This document shows, one piece after another, positions 1 to 12,858 of a stretch of 14,607 bases of DNA. Each line of letters starts with the position of its first letter. The first letter of the stretch is position 1. A model generated the notes under the pieces. That model had not been told where the DNA came from. It did not search any database and worked only from the letters and a program-made list of their open reading frames with translations. This stretch comes from an uncultured Muribaculaceae bacterium. Its GTDB lineage: Bacteria; Bacillota_I; Bacilli_A; RF39; UBA660. The stretch is taken from assembly GCA_964616645.1 (NCBI GenBank), contig CAZTUM010000018.1, forward strand, positions 1 through 14,607, read 5' to 3'. The position numbers were made by a program, and so were the translations under genes.

Positions 1-1
1 A

Positions 2-775
2 TTAAAGACAGAATATTGCTATGAGAGTAAAGATTTTAATGAAGTAAAAGGAAGATTAAAATATTTAAAAGAAATAAAAGGGATAGGATTATTTATAGGT
101 AGTAGTGGATTAGGGAAAACATATTCAATAAGATGTTTTACAGAAAGTTTAAATAAAGATTTATATAAAGTAATATATATATCACCAACAAAGAAGATGC
201 GAGTATTTGAGTTTTTTGCACAAATAGCAAGGAACTTAAATATAGATACAGGAGCTTGTTATAAAAATGAAATGTATGAGAGAATACAAACAGAAATAAA
301 AAGATTAGTAAATGAAAAGAGAATACAACCAATATTTATAATAGATGATGCAGACAATTTAAATGAACATATATTAATGGAATTAAAATTATTATTTGAC
401 TTTCAGATGGATAGTAAAGATTATACAACAATAATACTAGTAGGACATGAAGAGTTAAGAAAAGAATTATCAAAATTAAAATATGAAACATTACAACAAA
501 GAATAGTAGTAAATTATAGATTTAATGGATTATCAAGAGAAGAAGTGAAAGCATATGTAATAAGTAGATTAGAACTAGCAAATCAGAAAAATAAAATATT
601 TCAAGAAGCAGCATTAACAGCACTATATTCAGCAAGTAAAGGAAGTCCAAGAAGATTAAATAATTTAATAATAAATGCATTAATGATAGGATATCAAAAT
701 AATAAAAGTGAGATAGATGAGGAAATAGTGATGTTAGCTAAGAATGAAATTGACTTTATGGAAGGAGAATGGTAA
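2..775 (+). CDS. ExeA/TniB-like AAA+ ATPase (transposition-helper type), 5'-partial; the frame is open to the window edge
   Basis: The frame of ORF 197..775 stays open back to nt 2 (LKTEYCYESKDFNEVKGRLKYLKEIKGIGLFIGSSGLGKT...). Walker A GSSGLGKT is at 98-121 and Walker B is IFIIDDAD. The C-terminal GSPRRLNNL motif is typical of ExeA-family ATPases that accompany DDE (Mu/Tn552/Tn7-like) transposases. Confidence 0.8.
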   Translation, partial: LKTEYCYESKDFNEVKGRLKYLKEIKGIGLFIGSSGLGKTYSIRCFTESLNKDLYKVIYISPTKKMRVFEFFAQIARNLNIDTGACYKNEMYERIQTEIKRLVNEKRIQPIFIIDDADNLNEHILMELKLLFDFQMDSKDYTTIILVGHEELRKELSKLKYETLQQRIVVNYRFNGLSREEVKAYVISRLELANQKNKIFQEAALTALYSASKGSPRRLNNLIINALMIGYQNNKSEIDEEIVMLAKNEIDFMEGEW

Positions 776-990
776 GAAAAAATAAAAGAAAAATGATAAA
801 TAAGTATGAAATAATATATAAAATGAATGCAATAATAGATTATTTAAAAAATAATAATGGATATAATTATAAAACGTATAATATGTTATGTCCAGGTATG
901 GGTGAACCGGATTCAAATATTATTGAATATGCTAAAGATGTTTTAAATATAATTAATGAATTAATTAATAAAAATCAAGAGATTAAATAA
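769..990 (+). CDS. Small hypothetical protein (73 aa), translationally coupled to the ATPase
   Basis: Its ATG overlaps the ATPase stop (ATGGTAA). The ORF is open in AT-rich DNA where stop codons are frequent. I recognise no motif. Confidence 0.4.
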   Translation: MVRKNKRKMINKYEIIYKMNAIIDYLKNNNGYNYKTYNMLCPGMGEPDSNIIEYAKDVLNIINELINKNQEIK

Positions 991-1050
991 ACTTATTAAA
1001 TTATCCCTTGATTTTTTAAATATAATTAAAAAAAATAATACTAAAAACAA

Positions 1051-1079
1051 TTGTCAAAAGAATAAATTTATGATATCAT
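1051..1079 (+). promoter_or_regulatory. Candidate sigma-70-type promoter for the DGR operon
   Basis: TTGTCA (1051-1056), a 17-nt spacer, then TGaTATCAT (extended -10; TATCAT at 1074-1079). It lies about 140 nt upstream of the RBS/ATG at 1206/1220. Confidence 0.35.
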
Positions 1080-1113
1080 TTATACATAAGGTAGGCAAGT
1101 TGATTGAATTATT

Positions 1114-1620
1114 TTGAAGGTAATTTATGTTGAGATAATTTGTAAAAAAAAATCCCAAATAATTCGCAATTATAAAGTCCCAAATAATTCGCAAATCAAC
1201 AATAAGGAGGATAAATTATATGAAAAAACAAACCAACGTTCGTGGGGGGGGGGTACTTTAATAATTAGACAGTCCAGTGGGATTTTCTATGAAGTTAATG
1301 ATAATGATGCAATAATTTTAAATTATTTATTTAATTATAAGATTACTGGTTCTAATAGAGTAGGGTTTCCTAATACTGCATTATCTAAAGTATTAAATAC
1401 TTTAGAAAAAGATAATATAGATTATATTTTATATTATATAAATGGAACAAAAGATGAATACCATAAAGTACCTAATAATTATAATAAAGTATTAACACTT
1501 GCACTTAGTAATTATGATTTTAATAATAAAATAAAAGATATTACTTCTAAAATAAATAAATTAGATAATATTAAATTAAATAATTTATTAAAAATAATCG
1601 AGGATTATTTAAATGAATAA
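1114..1620 (+). CDS. DGR accessory ORF with MutS domain-I-like (mismatch-binding-domain-like) sequence; the native start is probably ATG 1220, which is out of frame as assembled
   Basis: LIIRQSSGIFYEVNDNDAIILNYLFNYKIT...RVGFPNTALSKVLNTLEKDNIDYIL resembles the MutS N-terminus ([17 protein letters not shown]...L.ITLT...PMAGVP..A...YI..L...GYKV). The as-assembled ORF needs TTG 1114, which has no RBS. The strong GGAGG (1206-1210) plus ATG 1220 is in the +1 frame and stops at 1259-1261 after the G10 tract. The stop overlaps the avd start. Confidence 0.5.
   Translation: MKVIYVEIICKKKSQIIRNYKVPNNSQINNKEDKLYEKTNQRSWGGGTLIIRQSSGIFYEVNDNDAIILNYLFNYKITGSNRVGFPNTALSKVLNTLEKDNIDYILYYINGTKDEYHKVPNNYNKVLTLALSNYDFNNKIKDITSKINKLDNIKLNNLLKIIEDYLNE
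1153..1194 (+). repeat. Two perfect 17-bp direct repeats, TCCCAAATAATTCGCAA (1153-1169 and 1178-1194), separated by 8 nt
   Basis: The exact duplication is read directly. It sits between the candidate promoter and the GGAGG RBS of the first DGR gene. I saw no further copies on either strand. Confidence 0.9.
1244..1253 (+). repeat. G10 homopolymer (simple-sequence contingency tract) inside the 5' end of the first DGR accessory gene
   Basis: Ten consecutive G counted at 1244-1253 in otherwise very AT-rich DNA. G11 or G8 would fuse ATG 1220 to the long downstream frame. Confidence 0.95.
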
Positions 1621-1957
1621 TGATTTTAAATTGATTATTTTAGTTAAAAATTATATATTATCTTTAGAGGATTTACTTATTAATGTACCTAATAAAGATT
1701 ATTATAATAAAAATACAATGAGAAGTTATTTAGATGATATTTTATTTTTAATTTATTTAATTAATAATCATAAGGATAAGAATGTTAAGATTAATTTAAA
1801 ATATGTTCTTTTATCTAAGGTTAATATGCTTAATTTTTATATTGAAAGATATCATAAGTTAAAATATATATCTAAAAAACAAGTATTTCAAAATGCTACT
1901 AAGATTGAAGAAATTACTAAAGTTATATATGGATGGATAAAGAGTAATGATAAATAA
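1613..1957 (+). CDS. avd: Avd-like accessory variability determinant (small four-helix-bundle protein)
   Basis: 114 aa, basic and helical, located immediately upstream of the RT and overlapping it. The C-terminal ...KYISKKQVFQNATKIEEITKVIYGWIKS matches the Avd pattern (..is..qy..l...i.eigkml.GW.k). GAGGA RBS lies 8 nt upstream. Confidence 0.75.
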   Translation: MNNDFKLIILVKNYILSLEDLLINVPNKDYYNKNTMRSYLDDILFLIYLINNHKDKNVKINLKYVLLSKVNMLNFYIERYHKLKYISKKQVFQNATKIEEITKVIYGWIKSNDK

Positions 1958-3032
1958 AATAGATTATTTTAAAATATTGGATACTTATGATAAGACTGTA
2001 AGTAAAAGAGTTAGAAATAAAAGAAGTTTAATTAATATGGAAATGAATAAAATTAGCTATGTTAGTAATATTTATAATTTATTAATTAATAATAATTATA
2101 AATTTTATAAATATAATATTTTTATAATAAAAGAACATAAATATAGAATTGTTATGTCATCTAATATCTATGATAAAGTAATTAATCATTATTATACAAA
2201 TGAATTTTTATATAAAAAGGTAGAACCTTATTTAGATAAAAGAAATATTGCTACTAGAATAGGTATGGGTACTGACTATGGTATTAAATTAATAAAAAAA
2301 TATTATGAAATATATAAAAAGTATGATACTTTTTATATATTAAAATTAGATATAAAGAAGTATTTTTATAGTATAGACCATAATGTATTAAAGAGTATGT
2401 TAAAAGATATATTAGATAAATATGAGTATTATATAATATGTAATATTATTGATAGTACTAATTATGATTATATTAATAATGAGATTAAGAAATTAAAGAT
2501 TAAATATAATAATCCTTATGTTAATGATATTCCATATTATTTACATGATAAAGGTCTAGCTATAGGACTTATGACTAATCAAACTTTAGCAATATTTTAT
2601 TTATATAAATTACATAATTTTATTAATAGAAAACTAAAATTAAAACATTTTATTTCTTATATGGATGATATAATTATATTTCATAAAGATAAAGATTATT
2701 TAAAGTATTCTTTAAAAGAAATAGAAAAATATTTAAATAATGTTTTAAAATTAGAGTTAAATAAAAATAAAACTATGATATGTAAATCAAGTAATTGGGT
2801 AGAGTTTTTAGGATATAATTTTAAAGTAGTTAATAAGAAAACTATTATTAGAATTAGAAGTAAGTCATTAAAAAGAATAAAGAAGAATATTAAGAATACT
2901 AAATATTTATATGATATTAATAAGATATCTTTAGAGAAAGCTTTTTCTATTATTAATAATTATAAATATAGTTATAAATATGATAAAAGTATGAAAGTTA
3001 ATAATTTAATAGATAAATATTGGAGGTGTTAA
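1947..3032 (+). CDS. DGR-type reverse transcriptase
   Basis: 361 aa. Motifs present: KYRIVMSSNIYDKVINH (KxRxI....DRVVQH-like), LDIKKYFYSIDH, GLAIGLMTNQTLAIFYL (compare Bordetella bRT GLPIGNLTSQHFANFYL; nt 2562-2582) and the catalytic YMDD (2658-2669). There is no maturase or endonuclease extension. A cognate TR starts 26 nt after the stop. Confidence 0.93.
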   Translation: MINKIDYFKILDTYDKTVSKRVRNKRSLINMEMNKISYVSNIYNLLINNNYKFYKYNIFIIKEHKYRIVMSSNIYDKVINHYYTNEFLYKKVEPYLDKRNIATRIGMGTDYGIKLIKKYYEIYKKYDTFYILKLDIKKYFYSIDHNVLKSMLKDILDKYEYYIICNIIDSTNYDYINNEIKKLKIKYNNPYVNDIPYYLHDKGLAIGLMTNQTLAIFYLYKLHNFINRKLKLKHFISYMDDIIIFHKDKDYLKYSLKEIEKYLNNVLKLELNKNKTMICKSSNWVEFLGYNFKVVNKKTIIRIRSKSLKRIKKNIKNTKYLYDINKISLEKAFSIINNYKYSYKYDKSMKVNNLIDKYWRC

Positions 3033-3057
3033 ATATAAAAGGGTAATATGAATTAAA

Positions 3058-3149
3058 TTACTCCTAATTCTAGTAATTCTAACAACGTCTTCAACGTGAA
3101 CAACAATGCGAATGTGAACAGCAACAACGCGAACAATGGCAACGGCGTT
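3058..3149 (+). repeat. DGR template repeat (TR); the 5' boundary could be 3055
   Basis: The 92-nt segment aligns without gaps (offset 1565) to 4623-4714. All 59 non-A positions are identical, and 16 of the 33 A positions differ in the VR. It is much more GC-rich than its surroundings and lies in intergenic DNA just 3' of the RT. Confidence 0.95.
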
Positions 3150-3309
3150 TCCTAGTACTTTATTTACTTGGTAATTTTAAAGGTCTATCCTTTAAAATCT
3201 ATAGGAATAAAGGACAAGTATTATCCTTGATACTAAGTATCTAAATTTAAATTATGGATGGATATTTCTTAGTTATTTATCCTAGAACCATAATATATTT
3301 AATTTTATT
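3150..3309 (+). ncRNA. Noncoding segment 3' of TR; candidate DGR RNA spacer or priming region
   Basis: A 160-nt ORF-free stretch follows TR directly. I can draw only short helices, for example AAGGA 3210-3214 with TCCTT 3224-3228, and GATAC-TAA-GTATC at 3229-3241. The assignment is by analogy to the spacer needed for cDNA priming in the Bordetella phage DGR. Confidence 0.25.
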
Positions 3310-3651
3310 ATGAGTGTATATAATAGATATAAATTTATAAAAGATATATATAGTAATTATATAATATTTATAAAGAAAAAGAATAAATATTATACTTATG
3401 ATATAGATAATAAAATGCTTAGAAGTTTAAAAGTAAATTATTATAAAGATATTGATAAGTATAAAATAAATTATTTACTTATTAATAATTTAGAAATTAT
3501 TAATAAGGTTGAATATAAAAATAATAATTATAATAAATATTTAATTAATTATTTAATAAATGAAATTTATAATAGATATAAAGAAAGAGAAGATGGTTAT
3601 AATGAAGAAATTATTAAAAATATTAGTTCCTATAGTAATAATATGTATTAG
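3310..3651 (+). CDS. Hypothetical 113-aa protein between TR and the target gene; possibly a second MutS-domain-I-like accessory
   Basis: An open frame of 113 codons is unlikely by chance at this AT content. RYKFIKDIYSNYIIFIKKKNKYYTYDIDNKMLRSL loosely parallels MutS [36 protein letters not shown]. There is no obvious SD, the sequence is low-complexity, and it overlaps the target gene 5' end by about 50 nt. Confidence 0.4.
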   Translation: MSVYNRYKFIKDIYSNYIIFIKKKNKYYTYDIDNKMLRSLKVNYYKDIDKYKINYLLINNLEIINKVEYKNNNYNKYLINYLINEIYNRYKEREDGYNEEIIKNISSYSNNMY

Positions 3652-4798
3652 TATATTTATTATTAATAAAAATAATAATAAATATACTAGTATTTCAGGT
3701 TACCCTAATACTAAGATTATGGTATCTTATAATGGAGTTGCTAGGAGTGATTTTCCTAGTAAGGATACTTCTTTATATTATAATGTTACTACTAATTGTA
3801 ATAATGCTTCTTCTCATTGGGATTATGATAATTGGGAATTAGTAATTAGTAATTTAACTAGTACTAGTAAATGTAATGTAGATTTTACTACTAGTAGTAA
3901 AACTACCTTATATAACTATATAGTAAATACATTATATAATAATACGGATGGAAATAATGATATATATAAAGAAGACCATACAATAAATAATAATAGTTAT
4001 TCAGAATATAGATATGAAGGAGAAGATACAAAAGTAAATAATTATGTATGGTTTAATAATGAATTATGGAGAATAATCGGGGCATTTCCAGGAGGAACAC
4101 CCACTACTAGTAGTACTAGTCTAGGAGATGGAGCACCTAGTACAAATAATACAGTAAAAATAATAAGAAATGATTCATTAGGAAGTTATGCTTGGAGTAA
4201 AAGTAATACCAATGAATGGACTACAGCCTCATTGAATAGAGAAATATTAAATAATTTATATTTAAATTCATCTTCAGGAACATGTAATTTTTATTCAACT
4301 TCAGTATCAAAAGCATGTGACTTTACAAGTAATGGACTAAGTAATGTAGAAGACTTTATAGAAAATGCAACATGGAATTTAGGAGGGTATAGTAGTAGTT
4401 CAGTGACAGCAAGTAGTATGTATGAATATGAAAGAGGCACCACAGTATATTCAGGAAGAAGTATATATGCAACAGTGAAAGTAGGACTAATGTATCCATC
4501 AGACTATGGATATTCAGTAACTAACACAAACTGTAATCACAGTAGTACAAATCTATCTAGTTATAACTCTTCATCATGTGGAGGAAAGAGTTGGATGTTA
4601 AAGTATGGATTTGAATGGACTCTTACTCCTTATTCTAGTTATTCTTACTACGTCTTCGACGTGAACAACTTTGCGAGTGTGTACAGCGTCATCGCGAGCT
4701 TTGGCGACGGCGTTCGACCAGTCGTATATCTAAAATCTAATGTCTATGTAACAGGGGGAGATGGAAGTATTGATAATCCATATCAAGTATCACTTTAA
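3602..4798 (+). CDS. DGR target (variable) protein: N-terminal membrane anchor, Asn/Ser/Thr-rich ectodomain, C-terminal VR-bearing lectin-like domain
   Basis: The ORF is open from ATG 3560. ATG 3602 (alternative 3593) gives MKKLLKILVPIVIICISIFII, a signal-anchor. The C-terminus EWTLTPYSSYSYYVFDVNNFASVYSVIASFGDGVRPVVYLK contains the VR in frame and ends with the G.RPV motif seen in DUF1566/CLec-like DGR variable domains. Confidence 0.88.
   Translation: MKKLLKILVPIVIICISIFIINKNNNKYTSISGYPNTKIMVSYNGVARSDFPSKDTSLYYNVTTNCNNASSHWDYDNWELVISNLTSTSKCNVDFTTSSKTTLYNYIVNTLYNNTDGNNDIYKEDHTINNNSYSEYRYEGEDTKVNNYVWFNNELWRIIGAFPGGTPTTSSTSLGDGAPSTNNTVKIIRNDSLGSYAWSKSNTNEWTTASLNREILNNLYLNSSSGTCNFYSTSVSKACDFTSNGLSNVEDFIENATWNLGGYSSSSVTASSMYEYERGTTVYSGRSIYATVKVGLMYPSDYGYSVTNTNCNHSSTNLSSYNSSSCGGKSWMLKYGFEWTLTPYSSYSYYVFDVNNFASVYSVIASFGDGVRPVVYLKSNVYVTGGDGSIDNPYQVSL
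4623..4714 (+). repeat. DGR variable repeat (VR) within the 3' end of the target gene
   Basis: It is the counterpart of TR 3058-3149. The 16 differences (11 A->T, 5 A->G) are all at TR adenines. Homology ends at 4714/4715, right after the GC-rich GGCGACGGCGTT. Confidence 0.95.
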
Positions 4799-4805
4799 GT
4801 AGCTA

Positions 4806-4847
4806 TATACGGTTAATGTGGAAGGATATCTTCCCATTAGCCGTATA
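4806..4847 (+). terminator. Strong stem-loop after the target gene (probable terminator or insulator before the rpsP promoter)
   Basis: TATACGGTTAAT (4806-4817) pairs with ATTAGCCGTATA (4836-4847): 12 bp including one G-U. An inner GGAAG (4820-4824) pairs with CTTCC (4830-4834). The downstream tract is A/T-rich but is not a clean U-run. Confidence 0.5.
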
Positions 4848-4873
4848 ATTAAATATATGTTAACCAAATATGG

Positions 4874-4902
4874 TTGACATCTTTTATTTAATATGATAAT
4901 AT
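4874..4902 (+). promoter_or_regulatory. Promoter of the rpsP operon
   Basis: TTGACA (4874-4879), a 17-nt spacer, then TGaTAATAT (extended -10; TAATAT at 4897-4902). Confidence 0.6.
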
Positions 4903-4927
4903 ATTGTAAGTGAAAGGAAGTGTTAAT

Positions 4928-5191
4928 ATGATAAAGATTAGACTTAAGAGAATGGGTGCTAAGAAAGCTCCGTTTTACCGTGTAGTTGTAGCAGATTCAC
5001 GCACACCTAGAGATGGTAAGGTACTAGAAAATTTAGGAACTTATAATCCAATTACAGGTGATATAAATATTGATAATGAAAAATGCTTAAAATGGTTGAG
5101 TAATGGAGCTCAACCTACTGATACTGCTCGTAATATTTTAAGTAAGGCTAAGGTTATGGAAGAGTACCATAACTTAAAGTTATCTAAGTAA
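4928..5191 (+). CDS. rpsP: 30S ribosomal protein S16
   Basis: [31 protein letters not shown]... is the canonical S16 N-terminus. AAAGGAAG RBS lies 7 nt upstream of ATG 4928. The GTG at 4910 in the ORF track would add a non-conserved extension. Confidence 0.93.
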
Positions 5192-11459: not shown

Positions 11460-12437
11460 TTGAAAAACAATATGATTATATATGTATCAAAAGATGGTAA
11501 TATAAAAGTTGATGTTAATATTCAAAATGAAGATATATGGATGAGTCAAGATGTAATGGCTAATCTTTATGATACTACTAAAAATAATATTTCTATGCAC
11601 TTAAAAAATATCTTTGATGAAGGTGAACTCCAAAAAGATTCAGTTGTTAAGAAATTCTTAACAACTGCAAATGATGGTAAGAAATATAATGTTTTACATT
11701 ATAATTTAGATGCAATTATTGCTGTTGGATATAGAATTAATTCTAAAAAAGCAACTGAATTTAGAATATGGTCAACTAAAGTTTTAAAAGAATATATGAT
11801 TAAAGGATTTGCTTTAAATGATGAAAGATTAAAGAATAATGGAGAAAGTCCATATTTTGAAGAGTTGCTTGCTAGAATTCGTGATATTAGGTCTTCTGAA
11901 AAAATATTTTGGAGAAAAGTGTTGGATATTTATGCAACTTCAATTGATTATGATCCAAAAAATAGATTATCAATTGATTTCTTTAAAACAGTACAAAATA
12001 AAATGCATTATGCTACTCATGGACATACTGCAGCTGAAATCATATTTACTAGAGTAGATTCTGAAAAAGATCATTTAGGACTTACTAATTTTAAAGGTAA
12101 TTATCCAACAAAGAGTGAAACTGAAATTGCTAAAAATTATTTAACTGAAGAAGAACTTAATACCTTAAATAGAATTGTATCTGCCTATTTAGATGTTGCT
12201 GAAATTAATGCTTTAGATAGGCATCCAATGACTATGCAAGATTGGGTGAATGAATTAGATTCATTTCTAAAAATGACTAGGAAGGATATATTAAATGGCT
12301 CAGGTACGATATCACACAAAGAAGCATTAGAAAAAGCACATAAAGAATATGATAAATATATGCAAAAACATTTAACTACTGCTGAACAAGATTATTTGGA
12401 AATGTTAAATAAAGAAGTTGAAGAAATTGATAAATAA
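11460..12437 (+). CDS. RhuM-family protein
   Basis: ...WMSQDVMANLYDTTKNNISMHLKNIFDEGEL....VVKKFLTTANDGKKYNVLHYNLDAIIAVGYRINSKKATEFRIWSTKVLKEYMIKGF..NDERLK is the characteristic RhuM N-terminal half. The start is TTG 11460 (GGTGA upstream); ATG 11472 is the alternative. Confidence 0.8.
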   Translation: MKNNMIIYVSKDGNIKVDVNIQNEDIWMSQDVMANLYDTTKNNISMHLKNIFDEGELQKDSVVKKFLTTANDGKKYNVLHYNLDAIIAVGYRINSKKATEFRIWSTKVLKEYMIKGFALNDERLKNNGESPYFEELLARIRDIRSSEKIFWRKVLDIYATSIDYDPKNRLSIDFFKTVQNKMHYATHGHTAAEIIFTRVDSEKDHLGLTNFKGNYPTKSETEIAKNYLTEEELNTLNRIVSAYLDVAEINALDRHPMTMQDWVNELDSFLKMTRKDILNGSGTISHKEALEKAHKEYDKYMQKHLTTAEQDYLEMLNKEVEEIDK

Positions 12438-12533
12438 TTGATTATGATTTACCAGGATAAACGCATGAGATTACAATTACTAAATTCTCAATAAAATAAG
12501 GGGTTAAATATTTAATGTTAAAGATTATATGAA

Positions 12534-12598
12534 GAGCCGTATGCGAGAAATTCGCACGTACGGTTCTGTGAGGGGCGACAGACTTCCTCTCACTAGAT
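12534..12598 (+). mobile_element. Group II intron domain V plus domain VI-like hairpin (orphan 3' fragment; no intron ORF or 5' domains nearby)
   Basis: GAGCCGTATGCGAGAAATTCGCACGTACGGTTC (12534-12566) matches the domain V consensus: the AGC triad, GAGCCGUAU pairing with GUACGGUUC, an AC bulge and a GAAA-type loop. Next comes an 8-bp helix, GTGAGGGG (12568-12575) with CCTCTCAC (12586-12593), then ...AGAT (AY end near 12598). Confidence 0.65.
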
Positions 12599-12858
12599 AA
12601 GAAAGGGAGGTGTAGTCGAGTTGTCTACTCGACAGAACTATGAAAGAAAACAAAGATTTAAATACAGATTTTCAAAATAATTTGGATTATGTATTAATCA
12701 ATTTAGAAAAAGATATATTTAAAGCAAATAGTTAGAAGATAAGTTGTATTTGGAAATGTCTAAAGATGATAAACCAATAATAAAAGCAACTACACCAAAT
12801 AGTAGTAAATATGATACAAAAATAGATGCGTATATTTAAGCTCCTAAAGTCCTACATG

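Follow-up and report, generated by a model that had tools for sequence, protein, structure and literature searches.

A Repeat Tract with the Signature of a Contingency Locus in the MutS-Like Accessory Gene of a Chromosomal Diversity-Generating Retroelement

Among the described diversity-generating retroelements (DGRs), those closest to the element studied here carry a small MutS-like accessory gene. This MSL accessory family was described by Wu et al. 2018 (PMC5758913), whose 48 architecture variants include the avd-RT-TR order (class B2; RT, reverse transcriptase; TR, template repeat) and the MSL-containing elements (class D); DGRs of Bacteroides also carry MSL (10.1101/2024.11.15.621889). 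Little is understood of the regulation of DGR activity or of the role of Msl. Here, we analyze a stretch of 14,607 nt (hereafter, the window; contig CAZTUM010000018.1 of assembly GCA_964616645.1) from an uncultured bacterium placed by GTDB in RF39 (UBA660). Positions 1204–4880 form a complete chromosomal DGR of the MSL-containing kind, and a run of ten G residues puts its msl gene out of frame with its own start codon. A preliminary description of the same DNA gave a correct inventory of the parts but overlooked this frameshifting tract, which, together with other repeats found at the same site in relatives, bears the signature of a contingency (phase-variable) locus.

The DGR is recognized by a 92-nt direct repeat, the two copies of which are 83% identical and 1565 nt apart. 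All 16 mismatches lie on adenines of the upstream copy (11 A>T and 5 A>G, for 33 adenines), a pattern that chance repeats do not give and that identifies 3058–3149 (+) as the TR and 4623–4714 (+) as the variable repeat (VR); the homology ends in the GC-rich GGCGACGGCGTT. The RT gene at 1947–3032 (+) matches Pfam RVT_1 above the gathering score (E = 2.3e-11), and its translation contains YMDD and IGLMTNQ, the latter being a variant of the (I/L)GxxxSQ motif of DGR RTs. Homologs of this RT regularly flank TR/VR pairs in related loci, which we collected by a scan with an RT alignment, retaining one genome per species; 360 relatives were found and the best 80 of these were examined. The Avd-like gene avd (1613–1957, +; 114 aa) matches bAvd (E = 1.2e-4, 22.9 bits against a cut-off of 40) and NCBIfam DivGenRetAVD (E = 1.2e-5, 25.6 bits against a cut-off of 80) below threshold in both cases; its orthologs in relatives have precomputed bAvd matches, and its size and position are conserved. 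The avd start overlaps the msl stop by 8 nt, the RT start overlaps the avd stop by 11 nt, and the TR starts 25 nt past the RT stop codon. We recovered, in the same place or close to it, every element of the complete one-strand DGR that had been reported earlier.

The msl gene occupies 1220–1620 (+). Its homologs, for example P0002 (133 aa, MKKQTNVRNGGGTLIV...), start at an ATG equivalent to window position 1220, which stands nine bases past the ribosome-binding site (RBS) AAGGAGG (1204–1210). From this ATG the frame reads ATG AAA AAA CAA ACC AAC GTT CGT GGG GGG GGG GTA CTT TAA and stops two codons past the G tract, and from 1243 onward the conserved msl domain (TLIIRQSSGIFYEV...) lies in a different frame. 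The tract itself, G10 at 1244–1253 (+), covers codons 9–12 of msl and is the sole G/C run of at least seven in the 14.6-kb window, the GC content of which is 15–35% per 500 nt and 15–23% across msl-avd-RT-ORFx (ORFx being the small gene described below). Msl is thus out of frame with its own RBS and ATG because of this G10, and G8 or G11 would bring it back in frame; read in this way, the window copy would be in the OFF phase. The annotated product (NCBI P0001, 168 aa) has an artefactual start: it begins at TTG 1114 only because that frame is open by chance, and its N-terminal extension is the leader, together with the RBS and the out-of-frame ATG, read as protein. The preliminary description had accepted this open reading frame (ORF), 1114–1620, as an intact gene, which it is not. 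Similar read-through calls occur in relatives (P0154, P0166, and P0169), and gene callers in general mis-annotate these msl genes, producing false upstream starts, truncated calls of 76–86 aa, or no call at all.

The length of the tract is polymorphic. According to the members of protein clusters and to ENA/Logan contigs, near-identical strains with identical flanks carry G6 (L012), G7 (L009 and L010), G8, which is in frame (L005 and L006), G9 (L020), G10 (the window, L007/L008, L180–182, and L185–187), or G-T-G8 (L183 and L184), whereas a scan of JGI metagenomes for GGGGGGTACTTTAATWRTTAGRCA found nothing. Within 90%-identity protein clusters, the called msl N-termini fall in all three frames: the frame of the main ATG (MKKQTNVRNGGGT / MTKKQTNVRAGGGT); a second frame (MFETGGT, MFETGGGT, MFETGGGGT, or MFVRGGGT), entered from an internal ATG that has no RBS and is not present in the window; and a third frame, called from a downstream Met as products of 76–86 aa (for example, P0132 on 12 contigs and P0146 on 10), to which the G10 of the window corresponds. 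Over the 957 kb of related loci, 26 G/C runs of at least seven were counted, all of them G on the DGR strand, and 10 of the 26 are located at +13 to +31 nt of the msl profile start.

Repeats of other kinds occupy the same site in other sublineages: 7.4 copies of AACAC (L022), at least 5.5 copies of the 8-mer ACAACAAC (L036), at least 6.9 copies of a 13-mer (L054), 2.2–2.5 copies of 17-mers (L046 and L075), and G9 (L063). None of these units is a multiple of three. Each copy that could be judged is shifted out of the frame set by its ATG, two of the contigs are broken within the repeat, and a repeat of this sort is present in 7 of the 80 species-representative loci. Comparison of msl copies in which the assembled tract shifts the domain out of the frame of the main ATG gives a dN/dS of 0.24–0.27 at a dS of 0.5–0.7, with all 121 codons intact (this set includes L009 and L012, in which the domain is in frame with the internal ATG that has no RBS). 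A dN/dS of about 0.25 over 121 intact codons indicates that msl is not decaying overall. Three features of simple sequence repeat (SSR) contingency loci are found here together: a 5′ repeat whose unit length cannot be divided by three, length polymorphism, and purifying selection. At the level of sequence, the msl repeat bears the signature of such a locus, the switching itself being what we infer. In the literature searched, we found no report linking DGRs or Msl with repeat-mediated phase variation or SSRs, which does not prove that none exists.

The relative pace of the two kinds of variation can be seen at the upstream VR of relatives (described below): an identical allele, with about 30 substitutions relative to the TR, occurs together with G8 (L005) and with G10 (L181 and L186), and the tract therefore changes faster than the VR. 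At the upstream VR of L180–L186 (for example, L181:7600-7725 and L182:7600-7725), several samples share one identical allele, and L182 has a very different one, with many A>T changes; between strains, diversification is visible, yet an allele is often stable across samples.

Poly-G tracts are not confined to msl. In related loci, tracts of G7–G12 are located between −35-like and −10-like hexamers or in the first target codons (L044:3206, L047:11656, L076:4943, L096:4912, L085:4755, L024:5262, L028:1090, L094:4204, L007:334, and L071:4856), the G10 of L071 being out of frame with a 631-aa ORF. From their placement, the genes of the variable proteins themselves appear to be repeat-switched, and repeat switching seems common around these DGRs. 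A G7 was also observed within the coding region of ORFx (L061:260-266), in frame in the assembly.

Several observations weigh against a phase-variable msl. About 90% of the representative loci have no msl repeat; the differences in tract length are known between assemblies, not within one population; long homopolymers are error-prone in sequencing; the internal second-frame ATG makes the OFF calls of relatives uncertain; and some copies bear extra lesions, which may mean that these copies are decaying or that further slippery sites exist. The lesions are an A8 frameshift in L005 and L006 (L005:7427-7440), a main start changed from ATG to ACG in L010 (~150) and L012 (~148), and a frameshifted, truncated C-terminus in L020 (~380). 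Were the G-tract differences mere errors of sequencing or assembly, msl would be a normal, constitutive gene with a Gly-rich N-terminus, and the window and L001 may indeed stem from the same reads. We nevertheless consider such an origin very improbable: G10 was obtained in six independent assemblies, G8 in two, and G-T-G8 in two, a recurrence that disfavors random homopolymer error; GGG is an unexpected Gly codon at ~20% GC, in the only tract of its kind in the window; and the 5-, 8-, 13-, and 17-nt repeats at the same position in other sublineages are out of frame as well.

Decay of msl in this clade, with a permanent frameshift and a DGR that works without the gene, would accord with the lesions of L005, L010, L012, and L020, with the out-of-frame state of most assembled repeat-bearing copies, and with the fact that most DGRs have no Msl (Wu et al. 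2018, PMC5758913). It is, however, hard to reconcile with the low dN/dS and the 121-codon frame kept between out-of-frame copies, with the in-frame alleles found in the same 90% clusters, and with the convergence of different repeat types on one site, and we hold it to be improbable. Finally, the intact RBS and ATG, and a frame that ends so soon after the tract, would also suit slippage at the RNA or ribosome level, or +1/−2 frameshifting on G10, yielding a constant low amount of Msl and no heritable switching; homopolymers of nine or more are known slippage sites. This explanation seems unlikely, since length polymorphism is seen in the DNA between strains, and the 5- to 17-nt repeats elsewhere are not slippage-prone for RNA polymerase, although slippage and heritable switching are not mutually exclusive. 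We retain repeat switching as the preferred account of the msl tract.

The MutS likeness of the first ORF, already proposed from its sequence, is borne out by its family and by its predicted structure. The Pfam domain MutS_I (PF01624) matches 56 of the 73 msl homologs (best E = 1.5e-8), and the top ~30 PDB matches of an AlphaFold2 (AF2) model of the window protein (pLDDT 94.3) are N-terminal domains of MutS, MSH6, or MSH3, the alignment to MutS domain I having a probability of 1.0 and a root mean square deviation of 1.3–2.5 Å over ~60 residues. In a profile alignment, the GIFYE of Msl aligns with GDFYE, the mismatch-contact motif (Phe-X-Glu) of Escherichia coli MutS, and the family keeps this GxFYE motif. 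Searches with the window Msl alone retrieved no MutS relative by phmmer against PDB, nor in Pfam or NCBIfam, and the msl profile gave a weak MSH6 match among PDB sequences (E = 0.48). Like the DGRs that encode MSL according to Wu et al. 2018, the cassette has avd and lacks HRDC. Taken with the modeled fold, this makes msl a member of the MSL (MutS-like) DGR accessory proteins.

A second small gene, ORFx (“msl2”; 3310–3651, +; 113 aa), is conserved between the TR and the target. Its 206 homolog clusters (77–114 aa) are all unnamed and none has a Pfam domain; they are always found inside these DGRs, together with avd and msl. Compared by hhalign, ORFx and msl align over 72–76 columns with a probability of 87–89% (E = 2-4e-6), ORFx lacking ~17 residues (YKI..VGFP.SA..KV) relative to msl. 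For the AF2 model of ORFx (pLDDT 92.6), the top-ranking PDB structures are MutSβ (MSH3) and E. coli MutS, with modest scores (E = 0.024, TM 0.50), and MutS_I matches are weak and limited to 3 of 72 members. Where MutS has DFYEL, ORFx has KYYTY, hence no Phe-X-Glu, in a weak register (the comparison with E. coli MutS is not significant). Judging from the models and profiles, ORFx is probably a divergent paralog of msl, and one may speculate, by analogy, that the two proteins form a pair mimicking the asymmetric MutS dimer. We also considered CH1, an acidic protein of 160–169 aa that Wu et al. 2018 (PMC5758913) describe as confined to DGRs lacking avd, HRDC, and MSL; ORFx, at 77–114 aa and always accompanied by avd and msl, was rejected as a CH1. 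In many relatives (L023:2530-2545, L024, L085, L087, and others), ORFx begins directly beside the 3′ strand of the final helix of the RNA described next, an arrangement in which ORFx translation could depend on how the DGR RNA folds. In the window, 17 nt separate the RNA helix from the ORFx start, and there is no clear RBS ahead of ORFx.

The TR is followed by a structured RNA (3150–3300, +) with three main hairpins. In an alignment of 38 loci, extending from the TR end to +155 nt, RNAalifold predicts a 14-pair hairpin with compensatory changes in every pair. In the unfitted alignment, a six-helix, 29-pair structure has 85.6% of its cells paired, against 38–50% in slid controls, and a covariation of 0.507, against at most 0.156 in the controls, a value reached by none of 500 shuffles. 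A covariance model places the element in nearly all loci of the lineage, always abutting the 3′ end of the TR, and matches the window once, at 3145–3318 (80 bits); in the 96 distinct matches, 91.2% of cells pair and 28 of the 29 pairs show compensatory change, in this case in an alignment fitted to the model. No Rfam match was found in window 900–5000 at E ≤ 1, and the element was absent from 80 viral DGR-RT loci of IMG/VR. In relatives, the TR and its RNA lie upstream of msl, downstream of RT, or in arrays, and because their position varies, they behave as a self-contained unit, independent of the host mRNA. In the Bordetella element, cDNA synthesis and its priming depend on RNA on either side of the TR, or next to it (PMC6182149; 10.1101/2023.10.23.563531). 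By analogy, we infer that the RNA is the counterpart of the Bordetella Sp region and that TR and RNA together would be the functional template unit. How the TR RNA is defined, a question raised in the preliminary description, thus has a partial answer in the conserved structure that always follows the TR, the priming role of this structure being proposed by analogy. Two to four tandem RNA copies were observed in single loci (L044:6047-7178, L048:3078-7082, L042:667-1422, L034:9589-11183, and L030:2344-4130), which, from their sequence, are probably multi-template arrays, with the TR units repeated too.

The lineage that shares this element is widespread in uncultured low-GC gut Bacilli (“Tenericutes”/RF39-like metagenome-assembled genomes [MAGs]): the best 80 relatives come mostly from MAGs labeled Bacilli, Tenericutes, or Mycoplasma, in addition to Clostridium sp. 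CAG:451 and a few other labels. HMM scans found msl-avd-RT-ORFx in nearly every locus with enough flank, and in a minority ORFx lies upstream instead (ORFx-TR-msl-avd-RT). The two small ORFs, whose conservation had been in question, thus stand beside homologous RTs in essentially every related locus that extends far enough. TR/VR pairs were identified by an adenine-tolerant diagonal scan, which detected no pair in many short or cut contigs. The layouts seen in relatives are VR-msl-avd-RT-TR-ORFx, this order extended by another VR past ORFx (L022 and L046), and VR-TR-msl-avd-RT-ORFx; in L036, the TR follows RT and only a downstream VR was detected, the contig beginning inside msl with any upstream target out of view, and its downstream layout is that of the window. 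The target is also linked to the cassette, as had been suggested, since a downstream target recurs in L180, L181, L022, L046, and L036. A locus with one RT between two msl-avd pairs (msl-avd-RT-msl-avd-ORFx) was observed in L014:1031-4082 and also in L015 and L016.

The closest relatives, L180 and L181, are colinear with window 1204–4840 (77.8% identity over 3.7 kb), and in both a single TR is shared by two targets, one of 571 aa upstream and one of 401 aa downstream. The window thus corresponds to the downstream part of such a two-target arrangement, and it looks unusual only for want of the second target that its nearest relatives have upstream. Window 1–1203 is unrelated to L180 and has an ATPase region in place of that target, so that position ~1204, on sequence comparison, may be a rearrangement or mobile-element junction. 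In window 1–990, this ATPase, of the ExeA/AAA_22 type (Walker A GSSGLGKT; TIGR03015-like, E = 2.8e-30), is cut off by the start of the contig; a 73-aa ORF follows it. A phage origin of the element was considered and is unlikely: RT relatives in IMG/VR are at most 37% identical, and none has the TR-3′ RNA.

The target gene itself (3602–4798, +) encodes an N-terminal membrane anchor or signal sequence, and the VR ends 28 codons before its stop codon. An alternative upstream ATG lies at 3560; comparison with L180 makes ATG 3602 the most likely start. Searches of Pfam, NCBIfam, and PDB sequences gave no match for the target protein. Homologous targets are present in related loci, and the VR scaffold is presumably C-type-lectin-like, as we assume from DGRs in general.

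An order described as atypical, with the TR 3′ of RT and the target downstream, could point to an unusual, rearranged DGR whose transcription, starting at the 1051 promoter and ending at the 4806 hairpin, yields one RNA that contains the TR and serves as mRNA for both RT and target, the definition of the TR then being a special problem. That all parts are co-directional, that the coding regions of msl and avd and of avd and RT overlap, that the gap between the RT stop and the TR is only 25 nt, that ORFx and the target overlap by 4 nt in relatives, and that the scan of the cassette found no terminator-like site ahead of 4806 are all consistent with a single transcript. The gene order is, however, unlike that of Bordetella but not new, being the norm of the lineage in our survey of relatives and falling in published classes (B2 and D of Wu et al. 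2018), and the TR and RNA module, with its varying position, behaves as self-contained whatever mRNA it lies in. The promoter-like site (1051–1079, +; TTGTCA, 17 nt, TG-TATCAT), with 10 of 12 matches, is among the best matches and stands as a candidate, in a scan that returned 43 sites in total against 45 expected in shuffles; at this chance level in AT-rich DNA, the scan is uninformative on transcription units. The hairpin at 4806–4847 (+), by contrast, is real as claimed (DNA fold z = −6.9); it starts 92 nt past the VR, not adjoining it as the inverted repeat beside an IMH would, and is followed by a terminator-like hairpin with a T-run at 4857–4880 (+). On balance, the rearranged, single-transcript interpretation is plausible, if somewhat short of an even chance. 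In the msl leader lie two exact 17-nt direct repeats, TCCCAAATAATTCGCAA (1153–1169 and 1178–1194, +), spaced 25 nt apart (two matches against 0.09 expected by chance), possibly a regulator binding site or operator to judge from their arrangement; relatives have, where the window has these repeats, the terminator hairpin of the upstream target.

Outside the cassette, a group II intron domain V/VI match was observed at 12532–12633 (+; RF00029, 60.5 bits, E = 4.7e-10). It sits downstream of the ORF 11460–12437, with no intron-encoded RT ORF nearby, and looks like an orphan 3′ intron fragment.

Taken together, we regard as likely a joint explanation by a complete MSL-type DGR with a TR-RNA template unit, Msl acting on the heteroduplex, and a repeat-switched msl. 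In the mechanism we propose, the TR and its 3′ RNA would be the functional DGR RNA, which would recruit RT and Avd and prime adenine-mutagenic cDNA synthesis, as Sp does in the Bordetella phage; the cDNA would then replace the VR via a heteroduplex rich in mismatches. Msl, alone or perhaps in an asymmetric pair with ORFx, would bind this heteroduplex and either shield it from host mismatch repair or aid its resolution. Slipped-strand changes in the repeat would switch msl ON and OFF in a heritable and reversible manner, by which the rate of target diversification would be phase-variable. That Msl acts on a mismatch-rich heteroduplex is plausible because, in a Bacteroides DGR, deletion of mutS raised VR mutagenesis 5–10 fold (10.1101/2024.11.15.621889). 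The fuller version, in which a repeat (poly-G or of 5–17 nt, evolved several times) gates Msl, and Msl and an FxE-less ORFx bind the cDNA:VR heteroduplex asymmetrically, is more tentative, and we view it as possible rather than probable. Against these proposals stand the dispensability of mutS for homing of the Bordetella phage DGR (Wu et al. 2018, PMC5758913), the lack of individual MutS_I matches for both the window msl and the window ORFx, and the purely analogical basis of the priming role of the 3′ RNA. To our knowledge, no Msl has a demonstrated function.

Should the fuller version hold, a gut population would always contain both “diversifying” and “frozen-receptor” subpopulations. The repeated positioning of msl after slippery repeats implies selection on the switching of Msl, and therefore that Msl matters for the cost or benefit of diversification. 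ORFx and the TR-3′ RNA are conserved parts that may be used to approach the biochemistry of template recognition and of the escape of the heteroduplex from repair, and they are candidate parts for engineered DGR mutagenesis tools. The repeat-carrying msl, ORFx as a probable second MutS-domain-I-like protein, and the covarying TR-3′ RNA seem to be new: neither msl repeats, nor ORFx as a fixed cassette member, nor a lineage-specific TR-3′ RNA was found in the searched literature.

Among known systems, the MSL-containing DGRs (Architecture D of Wu et al. 2018, PMC5758913; Legionella; Bacteroides Bfr/Bth/Bun, 10.1101/2024.11.15.621889) share with the window lineage a small MutS-domain-I-like gene accompanying avd and RT, adenine-specific transfer from TR to VR, gut bacterial hosts, and the avd-RT-TR core order (B2). 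The window lineage differs in its fixed ORFx, in the msl repeats of several sublineages, and in its TR-3′ RNA. With the DGR of the Bordetella phage BPP-1 (mtd-avd-TR-brt), the element has in common an RT with Avd, A-to-N changes, a VR at the 3′ end of the target, a GC-rich end of the homology, and RNA next to the TR, which in BPP-1 is needed for cDNA synthesis (PMC6182149; 10.1101/2023.10.23.563531). The window DGR is, in contrast, chromosomal, the closest viral RTs being at most 37% identical; its TR is 3′ of RT, its target is downstream, and it has a second, probably MutS-like gene in addition to msl; its hairpin lies ~90 nt past the VR, whereas that of BPP-1 directly follows the initiation of mutagenic homing (IMH) site; and its 3′ RNA has no detectable Rfam similarity.

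SSR contingency loci, such as the poly-G loci of Neisseria, Haemophilus, and Campylobacter (PMC5084427, PMC8355987), likewise carry, within the first ~12 codons, a repeat whose unit length is no multiple of three and whose tract length varies among near-identical strains, so that some alleles are in frame and others are not; poly-G is also present in promoter spacers and at the 5′ ends of surface-protein (target) genes of related DGR loci. The difference is that the putatively switched gene, msl, encodes an accessory factor of targeted hypermutation, not a surface antigen or a methyltransferase. Lastly, the products of msl and, probably, ORFx have the predicted fold of domain I of the MutS homodimer and of MSH2-MSH6: Msl has G-x-F-Y-E, and ORFx is without it, like the non-contacting subunit of an asymmetric dimer. 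Unlike MutS, neither protein has the connector, lever, clamp, or ATPase domains, and each has instead a C-terminal helical extension.

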